Shown in pieces: positions 146 through 22,510 of a DNA stretch of 37,616 nucleotides (positions within the stretch are counted from its first letter, which is position 1; every line of letters starts with the position of its first letter). The position numbers and the translations under genes are program-made. The stretch is from the UHGV virus genome UHGV-0218797; one strand, given 5' to 3'. Under the pieces are notes generated by a model. That model worked only from the letters and a program-made list of their open reading frames with translations. It was not told the DNA's origin and searched no databases. Origin of the DNA: a virus.

Positions 146-727
146 TTAAACAAGCTCCTGCGCCATGCTGAACGCATCGTCGCAGCGGTTCAGCCATCCT
201 TTGCCGAACACGGGGAACTGTTTGCAAGAATGGTAAAATGATTTGCGCCGTTCGTTCAGAGTGGAGAGAAATTCGGACTCTCCCGTTTGGGCGAGAACGG
301 TTTTTAACATCTGCCGGGTTTGTTTTCCCGGGATGCCGTCCACCACAAGCCCGGCGCCGTTAATATTCAGCGCGCGCTGCAAAATCTTCCCGGTATTCCT
401 GCTCCCGGAATTGAAAAAATGGTCCCGCAGGATGAATTCAACGCCAGGAAAAGCGTCGGAACCCAGCCAGGAGCGCACGGCGGCGGTATTATCCAGCACA
501 TACTGGAGACATCCTTCCCAGGCCTCTTCACGTCTTCCGGCATTCAGCAGGGCCTTCAACCTGTTAAACACGTCCGGTTCAATACCGTCGCAAATGCCGC
601 AAATCTCCCACTTGCCGCCCTTGTCGGCGGCGGGAAGGCGGGAAACGCGCAGGGAATCCGGCCCGGTGACGAGGCTGTCTTCAAAGCGGAGGATGGCCGC
701 AGCCATCTTTCTTTCTATAGTATTCAT
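146..727 (-). CDS. Endolysin-like glycoside hydrolase family 108 with a C-terminal PG_binding_3 domain.
   Basis: The N-terminal motifs FEDSLV...DKGGKWEICGI resemble the GH108 EGG...DPGG...GIT region. The C-terminal LVVDGIPGKQTRQMLK matches the PG_binding_3 pattern. The start was chosen at the internal Met MNTIERK, which gives an ATGA overlap with the upstream ORF; the track ORF runs 146-805. Confidence 0.7.
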   Translation of the reverse strand: MNTIERKMAAAILRFEDSLVTGPDSLRVSRLPAADKGGKWEICGICDGIEPDVFNRLKALLNAGRREEAWEGCLQYVLDNTAAVRSWLGSDAFPGVEFILRDHFFNSGSRNTGKILQRALNINGAGLVVDGIPGKQTRQMLKTVLAQTGESEFLSTLNERRKSFYHSCKQFPVFGKGWLNRCDDAFSMAQELV

Positions 728-912
728 TCGTTCAGATTGTCGATAAGTTGCACAAGCCGCTTGCCTTCCACGGTGTAGCAATGGCACCTGGCATGCAAAT
801 GCCACTCATTAAATTGAGCCAGGAAAAAAGCGGCGTCTCTTTCGGTAAGAAAAATTTTCATCCACTGCTCCTTTCCGGGTTCGTCCACAATGAGTATGTA
901 CAGGGTAGGCAT
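724..912 (-). CDS. Hypothetical 62-aa protein, translationally coupled to the lysin by an ATGA overlap.
   Basis: ORF on the same strand whose stop overlaps the lysin start. No recognisable domain. Confidence 0.35.
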   Translation of the reverse strand: MPTLYILIVDEPGKEQWMKIFLTERDAAFFLAQFNEWHLHARCHCYTVEGKRLVQLIDNLNE

Positions 913-1122
913 GCGGAAACTATTGATTATTAACTAAAGGGAACTTGTAAGAAAAACTTTACAGTTGGTGTTATCGTCCGCACCGAGAAAAGTACAAGAG
1001 AATGGCCAGTGCAGTGAGCCATACCCCGATACCATATCCAGGTTCCCCTATACACATGAGGGTAAATCCCAAAACTGTTGCTGATAAAATGGCCATTAAC
1101 GACAGAAAGAATTGTTCTTCAT

Positions 1123-1374
1123 TCACTTTTCCAGCTTCCTTTCTATGTTTTCGATGCGCACGGCAAGCAGTTGAATCGCCTTGGCCGTCTCCACCTGGGC
1201 CTGCGTCTGCATGGTCATCAAATCACAAAGGCGGTCATTGTGGTGGCTGACCACCTCCCCGATGTACCAGCATGCCCCGCCGCATATCGTCAGCGACATC
1301 AGGACGCAGGCAAACACGGGGGAAGCCTTGGCAAAATCCAGGAAACGCGCCGGTACTTCGGAGAGCTTACACAT
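1123..1374 (-). CDS. Small single-TM protein with a C-terminal coiled coil. Holin or i-spanin-like member of the lysis cassette.
   Basis: Hydrophobic segment SPVFACVLMSLTICGGACWYIG followed by a charged helical tail. Sits beside the lysin. Start placed at the internal Met (MCKLSEV). Confidence 0.35.
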   Translation of the reverse strand: MCKLSEVPARFLDFAKASPVFACVLMSLTICGGACWYIGEVVSHHNDRLCDLMTMQTQAQVETAKAIQLLAVRIENIERKLEK

Positions 1375-1378
1375 GGCC

Positions 1379-1849
1379 TTATTTCTTGGAAGGTACGATC
1401 TGAACAACGGGCGGAACGTCCGTTTCCGGCAGGGCCTGACTGTAGGAGATATGCCCCTGCTCAATGACGAGGCAGGAGCCGTCTTTGCATACCACCGTCT
1501 TTTCCGGCGTCACGTCCACGGAATGGCCGCAGCCGGAGAGAGACATTCCCAAGCCGCCAAGGATGGCGCCAGCGATAACCGCTCCGGCTGCATATAGGGC
1601 CTTTTTCCACCAAGTGGACGCGCCGGAAGCCTTGAGGCCGAGATAGGCCCGAACATCTTCCAGCGCATGCTTACCGATGATCGGGAGGGCAGTATTTGCT
1701 ACGGCAATCCATCCTTGTTGATCGTTTTCCGTCAGGTCTGCCCAGTGAGGGATTGGAGTGTTGGACTCATTGTGTGCCTGGGCTGCATAGTACATGTGCA
1801 TTTCTCTGGCGATAGCCTCGGCATGATTGCATTGATTATTAGTAGTCAT
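1379..1849 (-). CDS. Membrane protein, 156 aa. Possible spanin, lipoprotein or holin of the lysis cassette.
   Basis: Central TM segment ALYAAGAVIAGAILGGLGMSLSGC ends in a lipobox-like LSGC. Adjacent to the lysis genes. Confidence 0.35.
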   Translation of the reverse strand: MTTNNQCNHAEAIAREMHMYYAAQAHNESNTPIPHWADLTENDQQGWIAVANTALPIIGKHALEDVRAYLGLKASGASTWWKKALYAAGAVIAGAILGGLGMSLSGCGHSVDVTPEKTVVCKDGSCLVIEQGHISYSQALPETDVPPVVQIVPSKK

Positions 1850-2271
1850 ATGATTATGTTGTTATTGGTAGAGGTAGTGAAGTAATTGAAAAACTCCACG
1901 GCGGCGGGTTCCGTGATGATAAAAGCCGGGTAGTCCGAGACTGTAAAAATCCTGCGGCCTTTGGTCTCCGCATGGACGGCCTCAACGGTCAAAGACACCG
2001 CATCAATCATTGTATAGGCACCATCCTCCGCAAGGGTCAGGACATCTTTTCCCAGCCTTGCCCATACCTGGACGGCTTGCCAGTCCTCGCCCAGTTCCAC
2101 CAGAGCGGCAACGACGGCGGCCATGGCCGGGGTCTGGTTCGCCGGAATTTCGTCCGCTGTGTAGCGGTCTGTCCGGGTGTAACCGTCCGCGTCCTGATAA
2201 ATGGGCGTCAGGGTAAATTCATCCCACTGTCCCGGCTGGGGAAACTGAATCTGTATCTCTGCATTATTCAT
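1846..2271 (-). CDS. Hypothetical protein downstream of the tail fibre. Possible fibre assembly or chaperone protein.
   Basis: ATGA-coupled to the fibre gene. No recognisable motif. Confidence 0.45.
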   Translation of the reverse strand: MNNAEIQIQFPQPGQWDEFTLTPIYQDADGYTRTDRYTADEIPANQTPAMAAVVAALVELGEDWQAVQVWARLGKDVLTLAEDGAYTMIDAVSLTVEAVHAETKGRRIFTVSDYPAFIITEPAAVEFFNYFTTSTNNNIII

Positions 2272-2273
2272 GA

Positions 2274-4571
2274 TTAGAGAGGTATGTTAATGTCCACAAA
2301 ATCTGCCGTTTCTTCGGTTTCAATACAGTTGCGGGATATCGCATCCAGACCATAGAAAACCGGATTAACATTTCCGGGATGGTAATAGGTGTACTCTCCG
2401 GTTCCCGCATAAACGGAAACATCGCCAGCCGTATTATTCACCACATCAGCCACCCATTGAGAAACGCCAACCCCGGTTTCAAAATTGCTGACCCCCCGGC
2501 ATGTGGCAATTTGATACAAATTATACCCCTGACCTCCGGTGAGCATGAGCCAGAGCGCGCCCGTATCCTCATACTTGGCAATATTGGCTGCAGATTTCTG
2601 CTGGTAAATAACCTTGGCAATCGTCCACGGAACAGGCTCATTCTGACTGGCTGGGATGAAGCTGGTGGTGGTTTTCACCTGCCAGCCAGCCGCGGCTGTC
2701 AGCGCGTAAATCTCACGCACCTTTATTATATAACCGTTGCGCTGTGTGTCCCTGACATTGTCAAAAGTAATATCCAGAATTTCACCGTGATTGTAAGCCA
2801 AACCGTTTGCCGGGATAATACTGTAAGAATCTATGGAAAGGTCGGGACGAATCGTCTTCCCGCCGCGTCCGATACCAAAGGACAACTTTGCGGCATTGGT
2901 AGCGCGCCAAAGGAAAGAGAACCCGGCGAAACTGGAATAATTCCATTGAGGATTACTCACCTCAAATCTCGCCTGAATGGTCGAATGAGTACCCTTGGGA
3001 ACCTTAATACCAGCCAAATGGTAGGGAACTGTTTTGGCGACTGTCGAAGATCCTGACGCGGTAATGGCATCCGTATTGAGGAAAGCATTAGAGGTTAGGA
3101 TGCCCGTCACGCCGGCCATGCCCGCGGCATACAGACGGTTGACCGCCCCCGTATCGGTCGCCGCTCCCACGGCCAGCGGAATGTTCACCCCTCCGTTGGC
3201 GTTAATAGCCCCGGCCGCCGTCAGACCTCCGGCCAGCGTCATGTTGCCGGAGGCGTCCACTTGAGGCATGGCCGCCAGGGCGTTAGCCGCCGCCGTCGCG
3301 GAGTTGGCCGCGCTGGTGGCAGAGGTTGCGGCATTATCGGCAGCCGTGGCCGCGGCAGCGGCGGACTGGCCAGCCGTCTGCGCCGCAGCCTCGGCGGTCG
3401 CGGAAGATTGGCGCACATCCCGTCCCAGGCTATCCAGTTGCCGCGCGGTGGCCAGCTCCATCCCTCCCAGGGTGATGCCGTCGTCATAGTCCACTACTAC
3501 GGTCATCAGCGGGGCCATCGTGCCGTTCACGGTGGGCGGGTTGGTCACCTCCGTCACCAGGCCGCGCCCAGGGACGGACGGAGTAAGCACGGCGTGCATG
3601 CCCAGCGCGTAGGGCGTCATCTCGGTCCCTTCGCATACCTGGATAATGATCTTGTCCCCGCGTTGCAACGTAACGCCCGGCGTAAATACCCACGTGGCCG
3701 TCTGGCCGCTGGAAAGGTTGGACACATAGGCGGAGGTGCCAATCAGGCTGTAAGCGCCGTCCGTCAGCCGCCAAATCCGCAGGCAATATTGATTAGCGGC
3801 CGGGGTTTCAAAAAAATACACGGTGGAAATGCTTCTCAGGCGGCAGCTGTCGGGCAGATGCCCCGCCAGAATCTCGTCTCCCCAAGTGAACGCGTAGCCT
3901 CCGACGATGGTCCAGGTGTCGGCGGCATCTCCACTGGACAAGGTGGATTGCCCGGTCACCGCTTCCAATTCCACGCCCGCATCCTTGAGCGCGGCCGGCA
4001 ATTTATTTGCTACAGCCTCATTGACCAATTCCCCGCTTTCCACCTGTTCTTCCAGCGTTTCCACAAGCCGCGTTGCTTCATCCCGGGCCGCTTCGGCCTG
4101 TCGTACAAGTTCCTCGACCACAATGGACGGGTTTTCCACAATGGTTACGGAGCCGTCTTCCGTTTCGGGGATGGAGACATCAAGAGCGCCGGCCACGGCC
4201 GCGGCCTCATTCGTTCCATCCGGAGGCGTAACGCGGGACACTACATGCACGGATCCCTTCAACAAGGGGTATTCTTTTCCCGATGCGTCGGTCAGAAAAA
4301 TATCATATGCGCCGCATCCGGCGGCCAGCCTCGGCCATGTCACCAATGCCGTACTCACCCCCGTAACGGCACAGTCCAGCATGATCACCCCATCCTGTAC
4401 CACCGCGCCGCGTAGCGTCATGCCGCTGATGTCCATATCCTCACCGGAAGGAGAAATAAAATGCAGCGCAAGAGACTGCGGCAGGGATTCCGTGGCGTGT
4501 ACGTTGTAGTTGGCAGCTTGCCTCATGCACGCATTATCGCCCCAACGTGAGGGAGGGTACAACAATGTCAA
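2274..4571 (-). CDS. Tail fibre or receptor-binding protein, 765 aa.
   Basis: Long Ala/Thr/Ser-rich low-complexity stretch (AAAQTAGQSAAAAATAADNAATSATSAANSATAAANALAAM) and a Gly-rich beta-type C-terminal region typical of fibres. TTG start embedded in the GTCAAAATGGGCTACG motif. Confidence 0.55.
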   Translation of the reverse strand: MTLLYPPSRWGDNACMRQAANYNVHATESLPQSLALHFISPSGEDMDISGMTLRGAVVQDGVIMLDCAVTGVSTALVTWPRLAAGCGAYDIFLTDASGKEYPLLKGSVHVVSRVTPPDGTNEAAAVAGALDVSIPETEDGSVTIVENPSIVVEELVRQAEAARDEATRLVETLEEQVESGELVNEAVANKLPAALKDAGVELEAVTGQSTLSSGDAADTWTIVGGYAFTWGDEILAGHLPDSCRLRSISTVYFFETPAANQYCLRIWRLTDGAYSLIGTSAYVSNLSSGQTATWVFTPGVTLQRGDKIIIQVCEGTEMTPYALGMHAVLTPSVPGRGLVTEVTNPPTVNGTMAPLMTVVVDYDDGITLGGMELATARQLDSLGRDVRQSSATAEAAAQTAGQSAAAAATAADNAATSATSAANSATAAANALAAMPQVDASGNMTLAGGLTAAGAINANGGVNIPLAVGAATDTGAVNRLYAAGMAGVTGILTSNAFLNTDAITASGSSTVAKTVPYHLAGIKVPKGTHSTIQARFEVSNPQWNYSSFAGFSFLWRATNAAKLSFGIGRGGKTIRPDLSIDSYSIIPANGLAYNHGEILDITFDNVRDTQRNGYIIKVREIYALTAAAGWQVKTTTSFIPASQNEPVPWTIAKVIYQQKSAANIAKYEDTGALWLMLTGGQGYNLYQIATCRGVSNFETGVGVSQWVADVVNNTAGDVSVYAGTGEYTYYHPGNVNPVFYGLDAISRNCIETEETADFVDINIPL

Positions 4572-4589: not shown

Positions 4590-6107
4590 CTAAATGGGAT
4601 AAAATTTCCCCGTATGTTTGACGGCGTGCTGACTCTTGCCCACAATAGGCCTGTTGCCCTCTCCTGTCCAAACTCCGGAAGATCCACGAAAGGAAGCCCA
4701 TATAGCCCCCAGCAAGGCGTCCGCGCGATCAGGAGAAGACAGGTTGCGAGCCTTCATTTTCTCCTTCTTCTCGTTCCTGAGCCTGGAATCGTCCGCATAT
4801 TCTTTCTTCCGGGTAGTCAACTGCACGAAAAGCGTCTTGTCCGGCCGCCTGGACCTGATATGCACTCGCCCGGTCATGAGTTCCAGTCCGGCGTCATTCC
4901 AGCATTCCGCCGAGAGATTGATGTAGCGGTCGCGGTCTTCCGGAGGGTTGTTCCCAAAGAACTCATTCGGATACCAACCTGATTCATTAAAATCGCTGAT
5001 GACAGCCAGGCCCATGCCCGGAGCGTCCACCCACAAATCACAATCCGCAATGCCCAGCCCCTTGAGGGTGGCAATGCACTTGCGGACACTCTGCACCGTG
5101 TCCCGCTGTCGTTCCGCGTATTCAATCCAGGCTTCGTTTCCGTCGCAGATGGCAAGGACTGTTTCATCCCCGCCCGCGGCAATGTCCAGGAAGGCCACGG
5201 GGCGCCCCCTGCGCGGCTCGTAGGGCTGCCGCTGACCCCATTCCAGTTTTCCAGGGTCAATGATGTACAAATCTCCTTCCAGCGTGAATTCCGCCAGCAC
5301 GACGGAACGGAAATAGGAATCATCCTCATTACCCCCCACACGGGCCAGAATGCGGTCAATGCGCTCCTGGGAGATATGGGGGCAATCAAAGGCCGTTACC
5401 ACCATCGGACAGAAGAGGTCTTTTTCCTCGTGGAAACAGCGATAAAATTGCCCTTCCGGCTTGCCTGGGGATGAAAGGTAGATGCAGAATTGAAGCGTAC
5501 ATCGTTCAATGGCGTCAAAGATTTCATCAGGAACCGTCTTTGCCTCGTCCACCACGAAAAACACGGGGGAAGAAGGATCATCCCCGGTAAACTCGTCAAC
5601 GTCAAACAGACGGGCTTTCTTCTCGCTGCGGGGGTCTTCCTCCTCCTGTTCCTTCCGCTCATCCTTGAATTCGTCCGTCACACGCCCGTGCCAGCCTTCC
5701 GCCTTCCCGGCGTGGTTGGTGGAAAAGCCTTCGATGAATCCCCCTTCCGGCGTTTCCACGCGGCAATTCTTGAGCCATTTCCAGCCCGCAAGGGATGGGT
5801 TGTTCCGGTGCCGTTCCAGGGCAGGCCAGAGCTGGTTTTTTACCTGGCGCCATGAGCCGGACGTAATAGGCATACGCCCACGGGGGTAGCGCCAGAGAAA
5901 CCATAGGGCAAGGATACCAATTACCTTGTCCGTCTTGCCGGAACCATTAGCAGCGCGCAGGGCAACCCGCTTTCCCCGGGCAGCCCTTTCAAGGGCCCGC
6001 ATCTGCCATTTGTACAGCCCTGTTTCCCCCAGAATCAGGGCGGCAAAGATGACGGGAGAGTCTTCCGGCCTGACCGGAGCCCCTAGCTTTCTTCCTCTTC
6101 GGACCAT
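4590..6107 (-). CDS. Terminase large subunit.
   Basis: Walker A AANGSGKT, Walker B FFVVDEAK, and a C-terminal nuclease-like region. Overlaps the upstream TerS. Confidence 0.85.
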   Translation of the reverse strand: MVRRGRKLGAPVRPEDSPVIFAALILGETGLYKWQMRALERAARGKRVALRAANGSGKTDKVIGILALWFLWRYPRGRMPITSGSWRQVKNQLWPALERHRNNPSLAGWKWLKNCRVETPEGGFIEGFSTNHAGKAEGWHGRVTDEFKDERKEQEEEDPRSEKKARLFDVDEFTGDDPSSPVFFVVDEAKTVPDEIFDAIERCTLQFCIYLSSPGKPEGQFYRCFHEEKDLFCPMVVTAFDCPHISQERIDRILARVGGNEDDSYFRSVVLAEFTLEGDLYIIDPGKLEWGQRQPYEPRRGRPVAFLDIAAGGDETVLAICDGNEAWIEYAERQRDTVQSVRKCIATLKGLGIADCDLWVDAPGMGLAVISDFNESGWYPNEFFGNNPPEDRDRYINLSAECWNDAGLELMTGRVHIRSRRPDKTLFVQLTTRKKEYADDSRLRNEKKEKMKARNLSSPDRADALLGAIWASFRGSSGVWTGEGNRPIVGKSQHAVKHTGKFYPI

Positions 6108-6571
6108 ATTTCTCTCAAGGCTGTCACTAACGGAACGATTGCTTCTGCTGGAAGTTTATGGGTCACCTCTACGTTTTTTTCTCCACCTTCCAGAGCCAAC
6201 GCCGCACGGTCTCCGTACTTCTTCGGCATCAGCTTGGCAAGCATCCATTTGAGTGTGTCTATTTCCAACTTGACCGCCTGCAACATGGTTCCCCCTATTT
6301 CGGCACGTGGGGCCACTTCATGCCCTTTCTCCACAAGGTCAAGCAACTTGTCTTCTAGGGCGGCAAGCCGTTCCTCGCACGCGCGCGCGTATTGGTTTGC
6401 AAAATCCGCGTTCTCTCTGGCCCAATTCATCACCGTGGGATGGGGAATGCCTTCCTTTTCGGCAGCCTTCCTCAGACTATCCCCGCAACGTATATGACCG
6501 CAAATGCGTTCAGAGAGGGCAGCGCTATACCTGGAAACATTTCCCTTCTTCCCGGTCCTCTCTTTCTTCAT
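6083..6571 (-). CDS. Terminase small subunit, HTH-containing.
   Basis: The segment YSAALSERICGHIRCGDSLRKAAEKEGIPHPTVMNWARENADFANQYARA resembles the terminase small-subunit HTH region. Lies immediately upstream of and overlapping TerL. Start chosen at the ATGA overlap with the upstream ORF. Confidence 0.6.
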   Translation of the reverse strand: MKKERTGKKGNVSRYSAALSERICGHIRCGDSLRKAAEKEGIPHPTVMNWARENADFANQYARACEERLAALEDKLLDLVEKGHEVAPRAEIGGTMLQAVKLEIDTLKWMLAKLMPKKYGDRAALALEGGEKNVEVTHKLPAEAIVPLVTALREIWSEEEES

Positions 6572-6897
6572 TTCGCATACTCCTTGTTGATTTTTTCCCA
6601 CCCTGCCGGAGGTATATCGTCCTGGCGGGGAACGTACGCCTTTCCGGAGAGTTTCACATATCCTTCAATCCAGCGCAGCCCTTCCGCGTCAATACAGCGT
6701 TCAAAGCTGGGGCAGTCCGCGTTATCGTAGAGGATACTATCAGGTTTACGCTCATAAGCGCTACATTCCATACTACCCGGGTTGAGCTTCTTCTTGGAGC
6801 ACAAAAGGCATTTCATCAGGAGAGGGTGGGATGTTTTGCATCCTTTGAAATCAGACTCCCAAATTCTCTTGTGCGCTGGTGATGTTTCTTCTTTCAT
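6568..6897 (-). CDS. Cys-rich small protein, 109 aa. Possibly Zn-binding or HNH-like.
   Basis: Several Cys and His residues (CKTSHP...CLLC...C...C). It is a packaging-adjacent gene. Confidence 0.35.
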   Translation of the reverse strand: MKEETSPAHKRIWESDFKGCKTSHPLLMKCLLCSKKKLNPGSMECSAYERKPDSILYDNADCPSFERCIDAEGLRWIEGYVKLSGKAYVPRQDDIPPAGWEKINKEYAK

Positions 6898-6901
6898 ATC
6901 A

Positions 6902-8497
6902 TTATTGTATCAATTCACAGTCAATGATCAATTTCCCGTTCTGATTATGGAATTGGAGAAATTTGAGGGTTCCTCCCTTCTGGATGATGATTTCATCTTC
7001 ACTGCTAAAATAGGTTTGCGGGCTAAGGCCGTCCCAGTCCTTACCGGCCCCTGCCCCGAATCTGGAAAAGGGCTCTGCATAAATGGCACGGGTTTTCTTC
7101 TTCAGGAGAATTCTGAACAACACGGGACGGTTCATGAATCCTTTCCCCTCCGCTACGGCAGCAGACATGAAACCTTCGTCTTTGAGAGGGTTTCCCACTA
7201 CGGAGAGATTGAGCATATCAACCAGCTCGTCTGTTATTTCTTCTCCTTTCCAGTTCAAAGCGTCTTTCAATTCCTTGTAAACCCCACAGCCACGGAAAAC
7301 AACCATGTCTTGAGGCACTTTGCATCTGTCAATGACTTTGGCGATCTGTTTCGCCTTGGCGTTGGACTTCCCCTTCCTCAAATCGTTGTTGATGCGGGCA
7401 TATCCATTTCCGGTGTAGGAAAACAAAGCGTTCTTTTCCAGTCTGGATGCCTTTGCCCACACTTCCCCGGTAACGCTTCGCAAAAGGTCATCAGCTTCCT
7501 TATCCGTCAACGGGGCAGGCATCTTCACCTTGGGGACATCTCCCAGGCTGACCGTGTGCGTGACGGCTGAGACTGGCGCAGGAATGGGAGCAGAGGGAAC
7601 CTTGATGACTTTCTCCGCCGTTTCCCTGGCCTTTTTCGCCACTTCCTGTGAGGGAAAGACAACCTCATCAGATTTGTCCTGTTTGACTCCCCAGCGGTCT
7701 TCATAGACCTTTTTCAATTTGGCCTTCAGTTCCTCCGGCAACTTCGCCGTACTGGCCTTCTTGCCGTACCCGTACCGTTCAATCAGGTCAATCCCGAAGC
7801 GCTCCGCACCCCTTGGACGCTTCAACGGCTCCCCGGGTTTGAGTAGTCCCAGCCGTTCGCATTCTTCCCGGGAAACAGGCTCCTGATCCATGTAGGAGTT
7901 GAAGCCGAACGGCGGCCAGGGGACCTCAAAGCCCCCGAGGCTGGCGGCGTTCATTTCGTCTGCCCAAAAAGTAAAGTCGGTTTTAAGCCGGACAGCATCT
8001 TCGTTGACGACATGAACAAGCCGCTTTGTCTTGGCTCCCGGAAAGCGGATGAACCGGAAAGCAGGCCATGCTTTGAGATTGGCTGGTTTCATGGATGCCT
8101 CCCATTGAGCAGCCCCAATGCTTTGCCGGACGTTGGTCTTGAAAATGAGCTTCAGACGGGCCAGAGCACCGATGTTTTTAATATCGTTGTGATACTTCGG
8201 GCCTTCGGCGTCCGGTGGAACAAGTCCCTCGGTTTGGAGCCATTGAAGTGCCTGGTTGGAAAAGTCCGCGGCGCTTCCTACCTTGATAACCGTTTCCCCA
8301 TTGGGTAAAGTCTCCTTTTCTCCTGTCAGATAATTCTTAATCAACCTGTGCAGCCGTTCCAGCAATCTGATATTCTCCACCTTGGAAGAGAAAAACTTGT
8401 TTTCCTTCATGGCAGCGTTCAGAGCAGCCCATTCCTTTGAATCCATGCCGGAGGGTGTGGGATGTTTTGCCAGGAATTTTTCCAGGGGTGTTACCAT
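6902..8497 (-). CDS. Head-morphogenesis-like protein (tentatively MuF/SPP1 gp7-like) fused to a C-terminal ADP-ribosyltransferase domain. Resembles a MuF-type polymorphic toxin.
   Basis: The C-terminus carries YTGNGYARINNDLR, then R in VVFRG, an STS-like GFMSAAV and an ExE-like SSEDEII. This is the R-S-E arrangement of C3/iota-like mono-ART domains. The N-terminal PP..F motif is weakly MuF-like. Confidence 0.6.
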   Translation of the reverse strand: MVTPLEKFLAKHPTPSGMDSKEWAALNAAMKENKFFSSKVENIRLLERLHRLIKNYLTGEKETLPNGETVIKVGSAADFSNQALQWLQTEGLVPPDAEGPKYHNDIKNIGALARLKLIFKTNVRQSIGAAQWEASMKPANLKAWPAFRFIRFPGAKTKRLVHVVNEDAVRLKTDFTFWADEMNAASLGGFEVPWPPFGFNSYMDQEPVSREECERLGLLKPGEPLKRPRGAERFGIDLIERYGYGKKASTAKLPEELKAKLKKVYEDRWGVKQDKSDEVVFPSQEVAKKARETAEKVIKVPSAPIPAPVSAVTHTVSLGDVPKVKMPAPLTDKEADDLLRSVTGEVWAKASRLEKNALFSYTGNGYARINNDLRKGKSNAKAKQIAKVIDRCKVPQDMVVFRGCGVYKELKDALNWKGEEITDELVDMLNLSVVGNPLKDEGFMSAAVAEGKGFMNRPVLFRILLKKKTRAIYAEPFSRFGAGAGKDWDGLSPQTYFSSEDEIIIQKGGTLKFLQFHNQNGKLIIDCELIQ

Positions 8498-8790
8498 AGA
8501 GGCAATTCTGGATGTTCAAAGGGGGGAGGTTCAATCTTGCCAAATTGGGCTACGTGATGTTCCAGAATGCGGACGGCGGGAAGACGGTAGAGTCCGGCGG
8601 ATTCCAGAGCATTGATAATGCTGTTGGCGCGTTCTTCGGCTTCCTGTCTGTCGTTAGTACCAAGTCCCAGCTCGACAAGTTTGCCTTTCTTTCTGGGATC
8701 CACCAGAAGCGTTAAGCGCAGTTTGTAGGATCCGGGCTTTCCTCGCCGCGTCGGCTTGTTTTTTCGCAGGGATGGTTTGGGGGGTCTCAT
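8491..8790 (-). CDS. Hypothetical basic 100-aa protein. ATGA-coupled to dnaB, and its stop overlaps the MuF-like start.
   Basis: The ORF sits between strongly supported genes. Its start ATG overlaps the helicase stop codon. Confidence 0.3.
   Translation of the reverse strand: MRPPKPSLRKNKPTRRGKPGSYKLRLTLLVDPRKKGKLVELGLGTNDRQEAEERANSIINALESAGLYRLPAVRILEHHVAQFGKIEPPPFEHPELPLW
8539..8554 (+). repeat. Copy c, a variant: GCCAAATTGGGCTACG.
   Basis: Two mismatches versus the consensus. Lies about 45 nt upstream of the MuF-like/ART start. Confidence 0.6.
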
Positions 8791-10172
8791 TTGTTGGTGA
8801 CGGGATAATTCTGTTCTTCCTCGTATTTTGTGAGTTCCGCGGTCCAGCGGAATTGAATACGCCCCAGCCGTCCGAAGCGGTTTTTGCCGATGATCCACTG
8901 CGCTTCCGTGGGGTCGTGCTTGTCGGGCTTGTACATGTAGGGGCGGTGGATCATGATGATCTGGTCGGCGTCCTGCTCAATGGAGCCGGAGTCGCGCAGG
9001 TCGGAAACGACCGGTTTGCCCTGGGCGTTCCCGGCTCTTTTTTCCACGTCGCGGTTGAGCTGGGCCAGCACCAGGACGGGAATATTGAGTTCCTTGGCCA
9101 GGGATTTGAGGCCGGCGGAGATTTCCGAGACTTCCCGTTCCCGGCTTCCCCGGGCCTGCTGGGTCGTGGAGCGCACCAGCTGCAGGTAGTCCACGCCGAT
9201 GCATTTGACGCCGTGTTCCCGGACCATCCGGCGGCCCCGGGCTCTGATGCTGTCGATGGTGAGGGAGCTTTCGTCGTCGATGTGCAGCGGGGCGGCCGTG
9301 ATTTTCCTGACGGCGGCCGTGAAATGCTGCTGCTGTCCGACCGTCATCGGCTTGCCGCGGCGGATGTCGTCGGAGTTGATGCCGGCCATGCCGTAGAGGA
9401 TGCGTTCCAGGAGCTGGGATTTCGGCATTTCCAGGCTGAACATGCCCACGGGGGTTCCCTCAAGGCAGATGTTGGTGAGGATGTTGACCAGGGCGGCGGT
9501 TTTCCCGACTCCGGGCCGGGCGGCAAGCACGATCATGGCGCCGGGCTGCAGGCCGTCCAGGGTCAGGTCCAGGCGGCGGTATCCGGAGGAGATTCCTTTG
9601 ATAGCTCCGGGGTTGTTCATGCGCCATTGCAGGTTTTCAATGATGGTTCCCACGGCTCCGCGGATGGTTTCGGTTTGGCGGACGCCACACCGGTCCCGCA
9701 GGGCGGACATGCCGCGCTCGGCTTCATCAAGGGCTTCTTCCGCGCTTTTGAGCTGATCGCCGGCGGCTTCCGCCATCCGGGAGGCAAACGCGAGCAGCGC
9801 ATGTTTTTTGGCAGCTTCCGTGACCATTTCCAGGGCGGCGGCGGTTTTGTACCGGGCAAGGGCTCCGTAGGTGGCCGTCTCCACGACTCCGGCGTGCCCT
9901 CCCACGGCGTCAAGCTGGCCCTGGGCTTCAAGGCGCGCGATGACGGTGAGGGCGTCCACGGTTCCTCCCGTGCCGGCGACGGTTTCCAGAGCGGTCCAGA
10001 TTTGCTGGTGCGCCGGGAGGCTGAATGTCTGGCGGCTGATGCCCTTGTCCCGGAGGTCCGCAAAGGCCAGGGAGCCGTCCATTGCCTGGGAGAGCACCAG
10101 TTTTTCGGCGTCGATGAGTGTCTGAGAGTCGATCATGTTTTTTTGAAATTGTTGATTGTTAAAGTTCTTCAA
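8787..10172 (-). CDS. dnaB: Replicative DNA helicase (DnaB family).
   Basis: GISSGYRRLDLTLDGLQPGAMIVLAARPGVGKTAALVNI matches the DnaB H1/Walker A block. Size is 461 aa. Confidence 0.9.
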   Translation of the reverse strand: MKNFNNQQFQKNMIDSQTLIDAEKLVLSQAMDGSLAFADLRDKGISRQTFSLPAHQQIWTALETVAGTGGTVDALTVIARLEAQGQLDAVGGHAGVVETATYGALARYKTAAALEMVTEAAKKHALLAFASRMAEAAGDQLKSAEEALDEAERGMSALRDRCGVRQTETIRGAVGTIIENLQWRMNNPGAIKGISSGYRRLDLTLDGLQPGAMIVLAARPGVGKTAALVNILTNICLEGTPVGMFSLEMPKSQLLERILYGMAGINSDDIRRGKPMTVGQQQHFTAAVRKITAAPLHIDDESSLTIDSIRARGRRMVREHGVKCIGVDYLQLVRSTTQQARGSREREVSEISAGLKSLAKELNIPVLVLAQLNRDVEKRAGNAQGKPVVSDLRDSGSIEQDADQIIMIHRPYMYKPDKHDPTEAQWIIGKNRFGRLGRIQFRWTAELTKYEEEQNYPVTNK

Positions 10173-10839
10173 GGTTGCTGTAAGGGTCTTTGTCTCCGTT
10201 CCCAGGGGGTGGCGGATGGTTGACGGCGTAGGAGGTGGCGAAGCTGATGGCGTCGGATTGCCATTTGGTCACGGGGATGCCGTTGCGGGTCCAGTTGACG
10301 GCATCCCGGCTTCCCCAGTAGGCTGTGGCGCAGTCCGGTATCTGGTCGGGGGTTAAACGCACACGCCCCGCAAAGGCCGCGGCCCGAAGATGGTCTTCGA
10401 CTTCTTCCACGGTGCACGGAAGGGGGGTAGAGGGGGTATTATTCGTCTTCGTCTCCGACTCCGTCTTAGTGTGCATATGCTGCGCATCTGCTAAGCATGT
10501 GCTGCGCATATGTGCATCAGGCGCAGGGTATTTGCTTTTCTTGCTCCGTACCTGTTGCCGGAAGTTGGTCACTTCCAGATATTCTTTTCCCTCGATGGAG
10601 TACAGGACGACGAGCCGGGCTGCCTCACAGGATTTGAGGCAACGTTGAACGGAATCCTCCCTCATGGAGTCGAGTTTCAAGGGGTACAGGGCAGAGCGTA
10701 GAACAGACGAACGGGCGTCAAAACGTCCAAAGTCGTCTACAACGGAGAGCAAGCGGCGGAAAAATACCTCCGCTTCCCAGCTCAGAGAATTAACCGCTTC
10801 GCTGGTTAAAATCCCTTCTCTGATTATTCTATTTGGCAT
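10159..10839 (-). CDS. Putative replication initiation or helicase-loader protein.
   Basis: Immediately upstream of and overlapping dnaB. No firm motif, so the call is positional. Confidence 0.35.
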   Translation of the reverse strand: MPNRIIREGILTSEAVNSLSWEAEVFFRRLLSVVDDFGRFDARSSVLRSALYPLKLDSMREDSVQRCLKSCEAARLVVLYSIEGKEYLEVTNFRQQVRSKKSKYPAPDAHMRSTCLADAQHMHTKTESETKTNNTPSTPLPCTVEEVEDHLRAAAFAGRVRLTPDQIPDCATAYWGSRDAVNWTRNGIPVTKWQSDAISFATSYAVNHPPPPGNGDKDPYSNLEEL

Positions 10840-16695: not shown

Positions 16696-17457
16696 ATGAC
16701 GCCGACTAAAGAAGACGTAAAAAAATGGCTCAAAACTATAGGTAAGGATCGCTTTTGGCTTTCAGGGAAACTCAACACGCCTAAAAGAACCATAGACAAC
16801 TGGCTTGCTCCCGGAGGGGCATTCCCTGCTTATGCAGTTCTTCAGCTCCAAAAACTAATGAACGGAGAAGCCGAATCCTCTCCCCGCATCGTCATAGACT
16901 TCACAGATGAAGAATGGGACATCATCTGTGAGGCTGCTAAAGCCCACAAAGAAACCTTCCTGGAATTCGTCAATACCGCCATTCAAAATGCCGCCAAAGA
17001 AAAAGAGGCTGCCCGCAAGAAGTTTACCCCGGTAGAAACATTCACAGCCCCTCCCTTGGAGGCTCAGGGACGAATCATCGGCAACATTGCCGCCGGCAAC
17101 CTGGCGGATGGAGACACCATTCCGCAGGACATCCGACTATACCGTGAACTGGAAAAAGGGGAATACTTGCTGCGCGTGAACGGTCACTCTATGGAACCTT
17201 CCATTCCGGACGGCTCCGTGGTCATCATGAAAAAATACACTATCCCCCCCATCCCCAAACCCGGAACCATTGTTCAATACCATGATGAACGCGGCGTGAC
17301 GCTCAAAAAACTGGTTCGCAGGAAAAACCCGGAAACCGGCAAAATGGAATACACCCTCCATCCCATCAACCCCAACTTCGGAGACATCGAACCCATGGAC
17401 GGAGGAAAAATCTCCGGCGTGTACGTGGAGACGCTGGAACGCTGGAAGAAGGCATAA
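16696..17457 (+). CDS. CI-like repressor with a C-terminal S24 (LexA-like) autopeptidase domain.
   Basis: NGHSMEP provides the catalytic Ser and TLKKL the Lys. The N-terminal region is HTH-like. The gene is divergent from the early operon. Confidence 0.8.
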   Translation: MTPTKEDVKKWLKTIGKDRFWLSGKLNTPKRTIDNWLAPGGAFPAYAVLQLQKLMNGEAESSPRIVIDFTDEEWDIICEAAKAHKETFLEFVNTAIQNAAKEKEAARKKFTPVETFTAPPLEAQGRIIGNIAAGNLADGDTIPQDIRLYRELEKGEYLLRVNGHSMEPSIPDGSVVIMKKYTIPPIPKPGTIVQYHDERGVTLKKLVRRKNPETGKMEYTLHPINPNFGDIEPMDGGKISGVYVETLERWKKA

Positions 17458-17514
17458 CTTCCCCCCATCAAAAAACAGTATACATCATAACTAAAATACA
17501 CTTATTATCATTCT

Positions 17515-19233
17515 ATGAGATACAAAAATTTCAAAATAAAAAATTATAAGGCTATTTCCAAAGAACTTACGATTGATCTTTCTCCACGTCTTATTCCATT
17601 AATCGGAATCAATGAATGCGGTAAAACAACAATTTTACAAGCAATTTTCTGCTTTGACGAAGAAAACGATGACCTTTATGAAGGAAGCCACATCAGCAAT
17701 CGTTTTAATCTATATGAACCATCAGACAATGGCCCCACGGAAATAACTGCTGTTATTGAATGCACAAGGGAAGAACTTGATCTTGTGTATGAAGAAATGA
17801 AAGCTGACAGTGGATTAGAAATACAAGATGATTTCGTGGAAACAGACGGACAAATCACAATAACGAGAATACTTAACGGTAAATCTCACTATATATCTTC
17901 ATTAAACTTTTATGAGCCGTCGGAAGAAGAAGAGAAGCCTTATGATGAAGAAATAACATCAAATATATGTTCCTGCATTATTCAGAATTGTCCTGCCATT
18001 ATTTATAGTGATGACTTCAATGATCGCCCTCCATCATTCATTGACTTTAAAAGTAATTCCCAGTCAGGAAACTTTGAATGGAAAGAAATATTCAAAAGAA
18101 TAGCGAAAGAAGCTGGAGTAGAAGAGCCATTCAACAATATCTTTGAGGTTGACGAGCGAAGACAACAAACCGTATTGTCAAGGATTGCATCCCATATCAA
18201 CCAAAGAATAACAGATGAATGGTTGAGATTCTCTGAAAACGCAAAAGACCTATTTAAAATTGAATTGAGAGTCAAAAATACACCAACTGAGCAGGGAATA
18301 AAAATTCAGATTAATGATAGAGTGCAAGATAACGATAACTATTTTGATCTGAGTGATAGGAGTAAGGGATTTATATGGCATTACAACTTCATCATGAAAA
18401 CCCTTTTCAATTCTAAACCCTTTAAACAAGAAAGGGAAACAATATTTCTCTTAGATGAACCCGGATCGTATTTACATGTATCCGTTCAGGCTCTTTTATG
18501 TAAAAAATTAAAAGAAATATCAGAAAAAGAAGGTGTTGTAATCTACAGTACACACTCAAGTTCACTGCTTGATATTAAATACATCCCTTCAAACAACATT
18601 TTAATTGTAGATAAGGAAAGCAATACGAGTGCCATCCAAGCCATTCCAATTACAAAGAAAAAAACAGCTACTAGAAAATCCGATCATTTACAACCACTCT
18701 ACGAAGCTCTCAGAATACCCCACATTCAAACATCTGAAATAAAAAATCATCCGATTATTTGTGTAGAGGGAATCAGCGATTTGTATGCAATAAAATCATT
18801 CTGTGACCTTCCTGAAAACGCAGTCGTGATACCTGGAGCCAATGCTGCATCAATCGTTGACACTATACAACACCTCATTGCTTGGGGAGCTAACTATGTT
18901 GCTCTGTGGGACAATGACCGTGAAGGAGAAAAAGAATATGAAAGAGCTAAAAAAACTTTTGGTGAAGGAGAATCGCATAAATTTCTGCTTCTACCTGCTC
19001 CCTCCAAAACGGAAGGCAAGAGAAGAATGGAAGAAATGTTCTCTTCCCAAACAATCTCTTCCTTGAAAGACCTACTCGGAATGGAAAAAGATACCAGTTA
19101 TGAGGCTCTAATAAGAACACTCCATTTCATTGACCAAGAAAAGAAATCCCTTATCATTAAAAAATCCTTGGATACTCAAACAAAAAAAATATTTTCACTC
19201 CTATCGAGAAACATCAAAGAGGCCTTTAAATAA
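17515..19233 (+). CDS. OLD-family ATP-dependent nuclease (ABC ATPase plus Toprim), class 1.
   Basis: Walker A GINECGKTT at the N-terminus. Toprim motifs CVEGISD (E-G-x-x-D) and WDNDRE (DxD). Size is 572 aa, similar to P2 Old. No helicase partner. AT-rich. Confidence 0.7.
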   Translation: MRYKNFKIKNYKAISKELTIDLSPRLIPLIGINECGKTTILQAIFCFDEENDDLYEGSHISNRFNLYEPSDNGPTEITAVIECTREELDLVYEEMKADSGLEIQDDFVETDGQITITRILNGKSHYISSLNFYEPSEEEEKPYDEEITSNICSCIIQNCPAIIYSDDFNDRPPSFIDFKSNSQSGNFEWKEIFKRIAKEAGVEEPFNNIFEVDERRQQTVLSRIASHINQRITDEWLRFSENAKDLFKIELRVKNTPTEQGIKIQINDRVQDNDNYFDLSDRSKGFIWHYNFIMKTLFNSKPFKQERETIFLLDEPGSYLHVSVQALLCKKLKEISEKEGVVIYSTHSSSLLDIKYIPSNNILIVDKESNTSAIQAIPITKKKTATRKSDHLQPLYEALRIPHIQTSEIKNHPIICVEGISDLYAIKSFCDLPENAVVIPGANAASIVDTIQHLIAWGANYVALWDNDREGEKEYERAKKTFGEGESHKFLLLPAPSKTEGKRRMEEMFSSQTISSLKDLLGMEKDTSYEALIRTLHFIDQEKKSLIIKKSLDTQTKKIFSLLSRNIKEAFK

Positions 19234-19426
19234 ACCTAATGAAGTTTACATTATATTACTTGCTTCGCCCCTTGGCCTCCGGGCCAGGGGGCTTTTTCGT
19301 TACTGCTACCTAGAGTCGAGAAGGAAATATCTCCTAAAATGTTGGAAATAATCATTTCATAATGCCGTTGAAAGAGTTAAGCAAATTATTTACAACTCTC
19401 TATATTTCATGGTATTATGAATTTGT

Positions 19427-19717
19427 ATGAAACTATTCTCTCTCATTTTAGCTGTTATTTCCCTCACTTCATTCTCGGAGGCGCACCCTGGCGGCTTGGA
19501 CGCCAACGGCGGTCACTACAACCGCAAAACGGGGGAATACCACTACCACCGGAAACCAGCGACCAAAACAGCAGCGGAAGAAAAAACGTACTGGATCAGC
19601 TCAACGGGCAAGACCCATAACAAAAACTGCCGGTACTACCGGGCTTGCAAAGGGCGAGCCAGCGATACGCCCAGCGGTGTGAACTGCAAGATTTGTGGGG
19701 GATCGAAGAAACAATAA
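19427..19717 (+). CDS. Secreted YHYH-motif protein, 96 aa.
   Basis: Signal peptide MKLFSLILAVISLTSFSEA, followed by GGHYNRKTGEYHYH. Confidence 0.5.
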   Translation: MKLFSLILAVISLTSFSEAHPGGLDANGGHYNRKTGEYHYHRKPATKTAAEEKTYWISSTGKTHNKNCRYYRACKGRASDTPSGVNCKICGGSKKQ

Positions 19718-19752
19718 ATATTTATTTGAATAAGGAAAAATACAATAATATT

Positions 19753-20616
19753 ATGAAGATATACGTTTATACTGTTACAGAAGAAAATCATCTTCAACCA
19801 CTTAAAGACATTCTTCACTTGGTAAAAGAAGAATCCTTAATGGCCAGAAATCGTCCTTTTTTAGGAGATTTTATGCGACTCAATAATATAATATGGAATG
19901 AAGAAAAAAATCTATTTTTTATGGATTTTATTAGAGTAAGAATGAGTCACGGTCCCGCTATAGGGGGACTTCAACGGGAAATAGAGGGATTTAACTTCAA
20001 TGAGGATGAGGGTTTCTGTGAAGAGACAGCAGCTATTTATTCTCCTGAACATCACGTATGGGTTGATCAATATAATTTTGCTGGTATCAGAAGTAGTAAA
20101 ATGGCAAACTATCTTTCAGACTTTTATCCTAATCGTCATGCTACTTTCCGTTTTGAACCTATTTTAAATCATGACATTGAGCAAAAATTATTGAATAAAA
20201 CGCTTTTTACAAAAATCGATTTTAAAATGCGACCTCATGTCATTACTGAAGCAGATCGAGAAGAAAATATTTCTGTCCGAAGAGCAGTTGAAATGGCAGA
20301 AGAGAATGGTTCAGCTTATGTTAAAATCACCATAGGAGCAGAGAGATACCACAGTTTGGCGAATCGTGCTGCGTCTTCTCTAGCTCATTGGTTACTAAGA
20401 AAAAGTCAACAATCTGAATATGCTATTGATAGAGCATGTATTACTGGAAAAGATTCAGAACAAGATCCTTCAGAAACCCTAGATTTACTAAGAGCAAGAG
20501 AATATAAAGAATGCGAAATTACAACTGCCTCTGATAGACGCTTCCCACGTGATGACAGATGGAATGCGTTAGAACGATCATTCCATGAATGGAGACGAAA
20601 CGGATTATTCGAATGA
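19753..20616 (+). CDS. Unknown cytoplasmic 288-aa protein. Candidate sensor of a two-gene module (positionally RexA-like).
   Basis: Good AAGGA RBS. ATGA-coupled to the downstream 4-TM gene. No recognisable family. Contains a possible Rx6H (NRAASSLAH) motif. Confidence 0.5.
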   Translation: MKIYVYTVTEENHLQPLKDILHLVKEESLMARNRPFLGDFMRLNNIIWNEEKNLFFMDFIRVRMSHGPAIGGLQREIEGFNFNEDEGFCEETAAIYSPEHHVWVDQYNFAGIRSSKMANYLSDFYPNRHATFRFEPILNHDIEQKLLNKTLFTKIDFKMRPHVITEADREENISVRRAVEMAEENGSAYVKITIGAERYHSLANRAASSLAHWLLRKSQQSEYAIDRACITGKDSEQDPSETLDLLRAREYKECEITTASDRRFPRDDRWNALERSFHEWRRNGLFE

Positions 20617-21077
20617 ATACACTTTTTGCAGAACGATTCTGGCCTTTGGTAGCTGGCATTTTAGGCACAGTGCTTGGCATTGTTCTGTATAATTTCAATT
20701 ATGTTTTATATATATCATCAAGTATTCTATCTTCGGGAATTACAGTAGGTGCAATTTTCGCAGGATTTGATGTTACACACAAAACATTATTGATTACTCT
20801 TAACTCGAATAAAATTAAACAAATAGAAAACGTAAAAAGCTATTATAACTACCTTATTGGTTACATGAATGCCAATTTAAAAGGAGCTCTTATTTTTGTT
20901 ATTTATTCCTTTATACTGCTCCACATGATAGATAGTAACCAAATATTTAATTTGAAAGAGCATTGGTGGAAGCCTTTTGCCTTTGCCCTATGGTTAGGGT
21001 GCGGTACGTATATGTGTACAGCATTTTGGAGAATTAGTTCCATTTTTACAGTTCTTCTAAAGAAAAAATCTGTTTAA
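20613..21077 (+). CDS. 4-TM membrane protein, about 154 aa (positionally RexB-like).
   Basis: Four hydrophobic helices. Start codon overlaps the upstream stop (ATGA). The track start at 20589 is also possible. Confidence 0.5.
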   Translation: MNTLFAERFWPLVAGILGTVLGIVLYNFNYVLYISSSILSSGITVGAIFAGFDVTHKTLLITLNSNKIKQIENVKSYYNYLIGYMNANLKGALIFVIYSFILLHMIDSNQIFNLKEHWWKPFAFALWLGCGTYMCTAFWRISSIFTVLLKKKSV

Positions 21078-21365
21078 CCTCATTTGAAATACCAGACAGA
21101 AACTCTTAAAAATAAACGTCTTTATCTTTGATAAGCCCTAATATGTTAGCGTACCGATTTCATAATAATTCTCCTAAAAATCTCTTTTTACAGAACAAGA
21201 TGTTTCACAGCTTCAGCTATGGCTTCAGAATACGGATGTACGTACACCCGTCCAATCTCTTTGAAATATGCTCCAAAATCACTCAACAGAGGCTAATGAG
21301 CCTCCATCTTCAGGGAAAATCCGCCAGTAGGCGGACACATCTTCTGGGTTGCAAGCCGCAAATAA

Positions 21366-22442: not shown

Positions 22443-22479
22443 GCCCTGCGGCCCTTAAACCGCAAGAATAATCTCTTTT

Positions 22480-22503: not shown

Positions 22504-22510
22504 ACACAAA

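Follow-up and report, generated by a model that had tools for sequence, protein, structure and literature searches.

Introduction

Fusions of MuF-type minor head proteins with ADP-ribosyltransferases (ARTs) of the Alt/VIP2 family are already an established class of phage proteins. Among the closest described systems, Bxa is an arginine-specific and promiscuous ART that is toxic to bacteria, requires adjacent immunity genes and also modifies host myosin; proteins of this Bacteroides architecture alter host epithelial metabolism and kill bacteria (PMC11699363). The Alt protein of phage T4 ADP-ribosylates RNA polymerase on arginine (PMC9503650). In the MuF toxin systems, terminase-adjacent muf genes were counted by Jamet et al as normal packaging-module context (PMC5576092). 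In the present study, we analysed a gene of this kind on the minus strand of the virus genome UHGV-0218797, whose whole stretch of 37,616 nucleotides (nt) is called the window here. The gene encodes a MuF-like domain joined to an ART in a temperate phage of Akkermansia muciniphila, and our literature search found no paper discussing an Akkermansia ART. Hence, we examined the two modules, the exchange of the C-terminal part between related prophages and the small open reading frame (ORF) that follows the gene.

Results

The window is a circularly permuted, complete temperate phage genome of A. muciniphila of about 37.6 kb, and it is 92% identical in parts to the phages Chantilly and Chambord. 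In the ORF listing, the gene under study occupies 6902-8497 on the minus strand, with the ATG at 8497 and the TAA at 6904-6902, and codes for 531 amino acids (aa) before the stop codon; translation of the same interval on the plus strand is interrupted by many stops. The exact 531-aa protein was found in NCBI (AYR34175.1 and BBP47545.1) under the name 'ADP-ribosyltransferase [Akkermansia muciniphila]'. It is present on at least 1000 contigs and occurs in A. muciniphila chromosomes, and in gut viromes the gene was found on about 48 IMG/VR contigs. The gene is a fusion of two modules. The N-terminal conserved module (residues 1-295; 7613-8497, minus strand) is a divergent MuF domain of the Mu gp30 type according to hhalign. 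It is followed by a flexible linker rich in Pro, Ala and Val (residues ~296-345; 7463-7612, minus strand), which was delimited by low model confidence and by the loss of identity with the sister prophage L003 described below; in the AlphaFold2 (AF2) model, residues 298-331 have a predicted local distance difference test (pLDDT) value <50. The third part is a structurally complete mono-ADP-ribosyltransferase of the R-S-ExE clade (residues 349-527; 6917-7453, minus strand), as seen by Pfam PF03496, by profile comparison with PDB and by Foldseek.

An earlier note on this DNA had placed a mono-ART in the last ~170 residues, and sequence, profile and fold all agree with this. The four motifs quoted there are present and in the order claimed: YTGNGYARINNDLR spans residues 361-374, VVFRG carries R402 (codon 7292-7294), GFMSAAV carries S445 (codon 7163-7165) with S-A-A in place of the textbook S-T-S, and SSEDEII carries E500-D-E502 (codons 6998-7000 for E500 and 6992-6994 for E502). 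In this numbering, an ART residue is the domain residue plus 330. The comparison of the C-terminus with ART families that the note had proposed gave a match to PF03496 (ADPrib_exo_Tox) with E=7e-21. The match scored 74.9 bits, where the gathering score is 23.4, and it extends over residues 349-527 of the protein and over positions 15-191 of the 196 in the profile. Among the PHROGs, the phage family nearest to the C-terminal half was 'Bxa ADP-ribosyl transferase' (phrog_16625; E=2.7e-12), with a further match to 'ADP-ribosyltransferase exoenzyme toxin' (E=2e-7). A phmmer search of PDB gave C3 exoenzyme at E=6e-9. An ART profile built from 7 sequences matched C3 exoenzymes at E=7e-20; it also matched iota Ia and CdtA, which are specific for arginine, and Lmo0066 of Listeria over essentially its full length. 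The matches to Vip2 and C2I took in most of the profile, ending at position 176-190 for Vip2 and at 190 for C2I, and all matches other than C3 lay at E=1e-17 to 1e-11. A word-indexed search with the ART domain returned Akkermansia fragments only. The AF2 model of residues 331-531 reached a pLDDT of 85.5 and a predicted template-modelling (pTM) score of 0.82, and Foldseek aligned it in PDB with C3, Plx2A, Lmo0066, Vip2, CDTa and iota Ia at template-modelling (TM) scores of 0.69-0.76 and E=1e-15 to 1e-13.

A short C-terminal peptide had no match in PDB, and the alignment of the ExE motif was obtained with a half-domain profile instead. With this profile, E-D-E aligned with Q212-L-E214 of C3, E-A-E of Lmo0066 and E-K-E of Vip2, so that the catalytic residues, which the note had expected to align with those of known ARTs, stand opposite their equivalents. 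The ExE motif goes with arginine targets, and the QxE type of C3 with asparagine. The alignment of E-D-E with these three motifs therefore indicates the ExE type and not the QxE (Asn) type of C3. These results support a predicted ExE, arginine-type ART whose C-terminal half is closer to iota, Vip2 and the Bxa-like proteins than to the QxE enzyme C3. R402, S445 and E500-x-E502 are invariant in 7 relatives with identity down to 30%, which include the Bxa-like protein of Bacteroides phage Versailles and gp5 of Microbacterium phage Rasovi. In addition, the ADP-ribosylating turn-turn (ARTT) loop holds an insertion of ~17 aa, GAGAGKDWDGLSPQTYF, with a conserved W-[DN]-G; this insertion is common to the phage MuF-associated relatives P0052, P0060 and the Versailles protein. 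Within the ARTT-loop region, the pLDDT falls below 50 at domain residues 149-153 in the AF2 model.

For the N-terminus, the reading as a MuF-like head protein was upheld by profile homology to Mu gp30 but not by the standard MuF models, and PF04233 (Phage_Mu_F), which had been suggested for the comparison, was unmatched. The sole N-terminal signal among the Pfam, NCBIfam and PHROG scans was a weak match to phrog_220 (E=5.5e-5), whose product name, 'minor head protein and DNA pilot', is that of the Mu gp30 RefSeq record. We gathered 48 homologous proteins with residues 1-340 and built a profile (A2) from 18 sequences, which has 10 invariant columns. This profile matched 3,512 cluster representatives at E<=1e-3, 644 of them at E<=1e-30. 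In hhalign it matched Mu gp30 with a probability of 97.6% and E=3.2e-12 over 166 columns, residues 22-219 (nt 7841-8434, minus strand; query 22-211 in the profile) being aligned with gp30 33-202. The alignment brings together the R..LI..TN.R helix, the R-x-x-H and D-x-F-W motifs and the PP-x-G-x-N turn. The NCRC motif of Mu is NSYM in this subfamily, which is plausibly why PF04233 misses the domain. The large terminase subunit (terL), taken as a negative control, gave 0.06% with the same profile, and membership in the MuF sub-lineage of Rasovi gp5 or of the Versailles Bxa-like protein was ruled out (<=0.3% each). Since the terL, Rasovi and Versailles controls were clean, the relationship is specifically to the gp30 lineage. 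Thus, residues 1-295 belong to the Mu gp30 (F)/MuF lineage of minor head proteins as a diverged member.

The core of the N-terminal domain (residues ~45-240) was modelled by AF2 with a pLDDT of 76-94. When the 340-aa N-terminal model was searched against BFVD with Foldseek, all TM scores were <=0.33, which is explained by the floppy termini; the named matches were mostly MuF, minor-capsid and head-morphogenesis proteins, so that this list is suggestive by annotation enrichment only. Of 86 family representatives, one has a MuF_C domain and two just reach PF04233 at E~1e-3, and a transitive search through the 150 best profile matches did not reach clear PF04233 members. Of the 138 representatives that were newly listed, about 40 have fewer than 400 aa, and some 22 among them consist of the N-domain only, at ~240-320 aa; stand-alone versions of ~280 aa occur in head modules.

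The earlier note had also likened the gene to polymorphic toxins, and this was borne out by replacement of the C-terminal cassette between near-identical prophages. Between L003 and the window, DNA identity is 98.6% over window positions 10437-7611 and 99.4% over positions 6897-4000. Only window positions 7610-6898 (713 nt, from codon ~296 through the stop and the 4-nt spacer) are replaced in L003, by 1,031 nt that hold an unrelated HExxH C-terminus and a 90-aa ORF. The exchangeable cassette (6898-7610, minus strand) therefore comprises the linker, the ART domain, the stop codon and the spacer. Its upstream breakpoint is at the linker start, between ETAE and the following K, where identity to L003 drops sharply at 7611/7610. 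Other relatives show the two modules parting in both directions. The protein P0008 is 99.7% identical over residues 1-295 and unrelated beyond, and P0015 is 78.6% identical in the N-domain and 98.5% identical in the ART; the backbone of P0015 is 95-96% identical to those of P0019, P0020 and P0021, which have three different HExxH C-termini. In Chantilly and Chambord the C-terminus has HEIGH and a weak LPD1 match. Among the 86 diverse family members, the C-termini include ADPrib_exo_Tox (4), PF01129 ART (2), PBECR2/3 nucleases (3) and LPD1/LPD3 (11), as well as zincins, DUF3626 and the one MuF_C; P0030 ends in a Kinase-PolyVal domain that scored above threshold. These findings indicate that the segment from linker to stop is a recombination cassette swapped among MuF-like backbones, with HExxH zincin/LPD1, Kinase-PolyVal, PBECR nucleases and other ARTs as the alternatives. 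This repertoire is that of the MuF polymorphic toxins and of the polyvalent proteins (PMC5576092, PMC5512222, PMC9503650). The 90-aa ORF of the HExxH cassette (L003:7650-7922) is acidic, contains the internal tandem repeat MTEEEFIEEMKDRGYTE (twice) and has ATGA overlaps with both neighbours; it is likely a cassette-specific immunity or partner gene.

Downstream of the ART stop codon, after 4 nt, starts a 109-aa ORF, w109 (6568-6897, minus strand), which overlaps the start of the small terminase gene (terS) by ATGA. It has four invariant cysteines (C30-x2-C33, C45 and C62) and a conserved tail, PRxDDxPPxGWE, and we consider it a candidate partner or immunity protein of the ART on the ground of its homologs behind ART-bearing genes. 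The protein had no match in Pfam or PDB (E=0.17 to TcdA repeats was judged spurious) and was not similar to known immunity proteins; the small ORF of Versailles gave 0.2% in hhalign, and the neighbouring ORF in the distant relative L014 is unlike it. A homolog stands directly behind the distant MuF-like::ART gene in L013 (40% identity, E=7e-29), whose ART domain is likewise 40% identical, and another directly behind the MuF-like::ART gene in L015 (59% identity). At all 47 IMG/VR loci that have a w109 relative and intact upstream sequence, an ART-bearing gene ends 5-14 nt upstream; these loci include a separate w109 lineage at 72-74% identity. The Akkermansia-phage contigs found in a scan with 3 ART-domain sequences were essentially those that the w109 scan had given, with one distant match in addition, and the non-ART relatives Chantilly, Chambord, L008 and L009 are without w109. 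The view that w109 is unrelated to the ART, which had been considered as homology with L003 resumes exactly at the w109 ATG, was dropped in the light of the homologs behind distant ART genes. No ADP-ribosylhydrolase (ARH) or macrodomain was found in any Pfam-scanned ORF of the phage. Taken together, w109 would be a partner of the ART, and its simplest role would be that of an inhibitor or immunity factor. In L003, it would then be an orphan left behind when the ART was displaced by a more recent cassette that brought a 90-aa ORF of its own. Orphan immunity genes left by cassette displacement are a pattern of other polymorphic toxin loci. In the last ART codons, upstream of w109, there is a sigma-70-like promoter match with an extended -10 (TTGATC, 16-nt spacer, TG, TACAAT; 6904-6931, minus strand), in a scan that is uninformative for a Verrucomicrobiota phage; such a site could allow expression of w109 and terS independent of the ART.

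The gene lies in a chain that reads dnaB, w99, MuF::ART, w109, terS and terL, with an ATGA overlap between dnaB and w99, a 7-nt overlap between w99 and the ART gene, 4 nt before w109 and ATGA again between w109 and terS. The context given in the earlier note, with dnaB upstream and terS and terL downstream, is thus correct. Its description of the position as atypical holds in that the slot between dnaB and terS is real and kept in Akkermansia phages (the window, Chantilly, Chambord, L003 and L015), but the departure is mild, as the gene is still inside the packaging module and chained to terS. The 99-aa ORF w99 (8491-8790, minus strand; junctions read directly) has a very basic N-terminus and no family match; it is 100% identical in L003 and 74% identical in L015, and is absent upstream of the distant gene in L013. 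The terS product is of the Sf6 type (6083-6571, minus strand, with a likely ATG at 6571; PF20901 E=2.5e-29, phrog_1482 E=1.4e-32) and terL lies at 4590-6107 on the minus strand (phrog_2 E=1.1e-20). The Mu-type portal gene (36403-37616, minus strand; PF06074 Portal_Mu E=5e-58) continues across the window end into its start. Its ORF shows no stop from 37564-37616 across the junction into 1-~145, so the genome is circularly permuted and cut inside the portal gene. The portal-adjacent gene w234 (35415-36119, minus strand) is 34% identical to a 227-aa ORF of L008 (E=1e-22), and a Mu-like head protease/scaffold of the gpI type is encoded at 33602-34699 on the minus strand (PF10123 E=6e-17, phrog_328 E=1.6e-16); with the portal, it marks the head module as one of the Mu type. 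The phage also has an integrase, an S24 repressor, a replication module, a GP7-type capsid protein and tail genes. The module order is terS, terL, a 765-aa tail-fibre-like protein, an endolysin-like protein, portal, protease, capsid and tail genes, and it is the same in Chantilly, whose homologous gene is annotated 'head morphogenesis'. Chantilly and Chambord, which are relatives from A. muciniphila YL44, can be induced, and virions were formed by prophages of the consortium concerned (PMC10197239, PMC8008629).

In the distant relative L008, the order is Portal_Mu, the 227-aa ORF, MuF-like::Kinase-PolyVal and Mu-like protease, which is the canonical gp30 slot; this position of a homolog also speaks for the MuF identity of the N-domain. 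Since L008 keeps this slot together with the w234 homolog, the gene has moved out of it in the Akkermansia phages. The window yielded no second gene with a detectable match to MuF, and the ORF in the canonical slot was unmatched in Pfam, NCBIfam and PHROG. With a portal and a protease of the Mu type and no other detectable MuF, the gene under study is therefore probably the sole MuF of the phage. Between w234 and the Mu-like protease, there is a gene for a lipoprotein with an NlpE N-terminal domain (PF04170, E=5e-25; 34884-35321, plus strand). It stands where L008 holds its MuF-like gene and looks like a moron in the vacated MuF slot.

Some further features of the window and its relatives were recorded. 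A cargo island of low GC content (35-46%) at 16696-24369 lies beside the integrase (21366-22442, minus strand) and encodes, besides an S24-type repressor, a GYF_2 protein and a trypsin-like peptidase, an AAA_15/AAA_21 ATPase (17515-19233) with a DUF6731 protein behind it (19645-20616); these last two look like a prophage-borne anti-phage defence system. The gap between terL and portal (146-4571, minus strand) contains the 765-aa tail-fibre-like protein, several small ORFs and an endolysin-like gene with PG_binding_3, which is unusual for a head module and is kept in Chantilly. The tail-fibre-like protein is 72% identical to its 824-aa counterpart in L003, where the flanking DNA is 99% identical, and it forms a second variable locus. 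A 483-aa ORF antisense to dnaB (8772-10223, plus strand, 65% GC) is almost certainly a shadow ORF. In L014, the genes on one side of the MuF-like::ART gene encode a HigB-like toxin and an HTH antitoxin, and those on the other side encode an AAA_15/AAA_21 ATPase and a RloB-domain protein; this region between the head genes and the terminase (L014:3492-4861 and 7454-9348) is a hotspot of conflict systems.

Discussion

Our analysis shows that a very common prophage gene of A. muciniphila joins a diverged gp30/MuF domain to an ART with a complete fold. The product is likely a virion-associated two-module effector of this temperate phage, and w109 may restrain the enzyme. The steps of packaging, ejection and target modification are drawn from the literature on SPP1 gp7, Mu gp30, T4 Alt and the MuF toxins. 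By analogy with these, the MuF module would dock the protein to the Mu-type portal or to the procapsid, so that a few copies are packaged, and the protein would be ejected with the DNA at infection. The ART would then use nicotinamide adenine dinucleotide (NAD+) to ADP-ribosylate arginines, in keeping with its ExE motif, on one or more host proteins, and the effect may favour the phage, through takeover or anti-defence, or may intoxicate the cell. In the producer cell, the co-inherited w109 would most likely be the inhibitor or immunity factor that silences the enzyme.

Several observations weigh against this interpretation. Neither the full protein nor residues 1-340 gave a match to PF04233, PF06152, TIGR01641 or any other model at Pfam E<=10 and NCBIfam E<=1, and the N-domain lacks the conserved Cys pair of Mu gp30. 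In the ART, the STS motif is S-A-A, with the first Ser kept and the Thr and the second Ser lost, a variant that might alter the handling of NAD+. The gene is not beside the portal in this phage; it follows the replication genes without a gap, and therefore it could be expressed before the head genes. The remaining points concern w109. It is outside the swapped block and intact downstream of the non-ART variant in L003, it could instead be a gene of the packaging module, being ATGA-coupled to terS, and the distant ART relative L014 has an unrelated downstream ORF and no w109 homolog. Furthermore, most of the 47 IMG/VR loci come from near-identical phages, and therefore the independent support for the linkage is only ~4-5 lineages.

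Of the other explanations, the one that survives best takes the protein as a fitness factor or interbacterial toxin in the manner of Bxa, released at lysogen lysis or carried on virions, hitting competitors or the gut epithelium, with w109 as the immunity protein. We consider this rather unlikely as the primary role, and it is largely compatible with a virion-associated effector, differing only in the site at which the enzyme acts. It is favoured by phrog_16625 being the closest phage family for the C-terminal half (E=2.7e-12), by the 30% identity of the domain to the Versailles Bxa-like protein and the long ARTT-loop insertion in both. The known properties of Bxa, which are toxicity to bacteria, dependence on immunity genes and action on myosin (PMC11699363), would also suit it, as would a host that is a mucosa-associated gut commensal, a gene found on at least 1000 contigs and a partner ORF that is tightly linked. 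However, the N-terminus has no detectable relation to the Versailles/Bxa-type N-terminus (hhalign 0.3%), the Pfam-scanned ORFs contain no BAH-type ADP-ribosylhydrolase, unlike Versailles, the protein is without a secretion signal, and nothing in the analysis bears on eukaryotic targets.

The two remaining explanations are less likely. In one of them, the protein would be a non-packaged intracellular modifier in the manner of T4 ModA/ModB, made together with the replication and early-middle genes, and its MuF domain would have lost the capsid role on relocation. This has in its favour that the gene comes straight after dnaB and w99, where stop and start codons overlap and the coding strand shows no terminator-like site, that it has left the portal-protease slot, which now holds the NlpE moron, and that the Cys pair of Mu gp30 has been lost. 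Against these stands that the gene is equally chained to w109, terS and terL, and terminase-adjacent muf genes are of normal context (PMC5576092). It is also probably the only MuF of a phage with a Mu-type portal and protease. In addition, the strong conservation of the N-domain (10 invariant columns in 18 sequences) and the stand-alone ~280-aa versions in head modules argue for a retained structural role, and we regard an unpackaged protein as improbable. Still less probable, to the point of being hardly credible, is a degenerate or non-transferase domain, either catalytically dead structural cargo or an NAD+ glycohydrolase, since the S-A-A variant, the low model confidence of the ARTT-loop region (pLDDT <50 at domain residues 149-153) and the ART-fold NADase toxins known in other polymorphic toxin systems (PMC13285283) are countered by the invariance of R402, S445, E500 and E502 among relatives at 30-99% identity, by the retention of the ARTT insertion (W-[DN]-G) in functional-looking relatives including Bxa-like proteins, and by a cassette that is 98.5% identical on diverged backbones, implying selection.

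The significance of a virion-associated effector here lies first in its host. A. muciniphila is among the most studied health-associated gut bacteria, and this prophage gene is met with extremely often in its genomes as well as in gut viromes. As the related Bacteroides protein Bxa acts on both the epithelium and bacteria (PMC11699363), the ART of the Akkermansia phage is a concrete candidate effector; being predicted to be intact and delivered by the phage, it can be tested for phage effects on strain competition, superinfection and host interaction. In addition, the locus shows a clean natural swap of a C-terminal cassette, with flanks that are 99% identical and breakpoints that can be read to the base. 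Moreover, a protein family of 3,500 clusters that is unrecognised by Pfam can now be linked to the MuF lineage, and the unannotated four-cysteine (Cys4) protein w109 is put forward as a possible ART partner. A further proposal, which we offer tentatively and hold to be doubtful, is that w109 represents a new Cys4 zinc-binding family of inhibitors or immunity factors, or else of chaperones or packaging adaptors, for ExE phage ARTs, in place of the ADP-ribosylhydrolase immunity of Bxa and Lmo0066, and that the Akkermansia ART is a Bxa-like effector directed at the host or at competitors. If this were true, the ART would contribute to the ecology of this health-associated gut commensal.

Compared with the known systems, the conceptual gain is incremental, and the new points are modest: a large gp30-derived subfamily invisible to Pfam, the relocation before terS and a candidate Cys4 partner instead of an ARH. 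With the MuF polymorphic toxins (PMC5576092), for example the EFV toxin of Enterococcus faecalis V583 (MuF1::ART), the locus shares an N-domain of the MuF lineage with a variable C-terminal toxin cassette, a temperate phage, a place in the DNA-packaging module, ARTs in the C-terminal repertoire and a small downstream ORF as candidate immunity gene. It differs from them in that the N-domain is unmatched by PF04233 or any other Pfam or NCBIfam model, that the gene is upstream of terS and not right after the portal, that the host phylum is Verrucomicrobiota and that the candidate immunity protein is of the Cys4 type and outside the swapped cassette. Bxa from the Bacteroides stercoris prophage PhiBxa and the Versailles Bxa-like protein are also fusions of a minor head protein with an ExE-ART in prophages of gut commensals (PMC11699363). 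Their ART is related to the one described here (30% identity, phrog_16625, long ARTT-loop insertion), and their N-domain family, too, carries alternative toxins. However, the Bxa-type proteins are of ~870 aa, have a middle domain and lie after the portal, and their N-domain is not detectably homologous (hhalign 0.3%). Their loci encode an ADP-ribosylglycohydrolase (BAH), which in Versailles neighbours the ART gene, and Bsi, whereas no ARH was detected here and w109 is unlike the Versailles neighbour ORF.

Mu gp30 (F) is homologous to the N-domain, and the portal, the protease and the GP7-type capsid protein of this phage complete the likeness to Mu. In place of the C-terminal nuclease-like MuF_C/PBECR domain of gp30 there is an ART, the NCRC motif is NSYM, and the gene has been relocated, whereas a distant relative keeps the gp30 position. 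The enzymes C3, iota Ia, CDTa, C2I and Vip2 have the same fold as this ART (TM 0.69-0.76), and C3 and the binary-toxin enzymes have in common with it the Y-x-x-x-x-I-N-x-x-L-R helix, the catalytic Arg, the Ser at the STS position and the ARTT glutamate. The ART differs from them in its ExE motif (QxE in C3), in S-A-A in place of S-T-S and in the ~17-residue insertion in the ARTT loop, and the protein has no secretion signal or binding component, so that delivery would be by the phage particle. Finally, the polyvalent proteins (Iyer et al 2017, PMC5512222) use the same domain vocabulary as this family, namely MuF, ART, Kinase-PolyVal, MPTase-like zincins, LPD1/LPD3, PBECR and MuF_C. They and T4 Alt (PMC9503650) follow the same proposed logic of an effector that is taken up into the head and then injected together with the DNA. 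Compared with T4 Alt, the similarity is limited to the ART fold (phrog_802 E=1.6e-4 over 65 residues), and compared with the polyvalent proteins, this protein with its one effector domain stands at the minimal end of the class.

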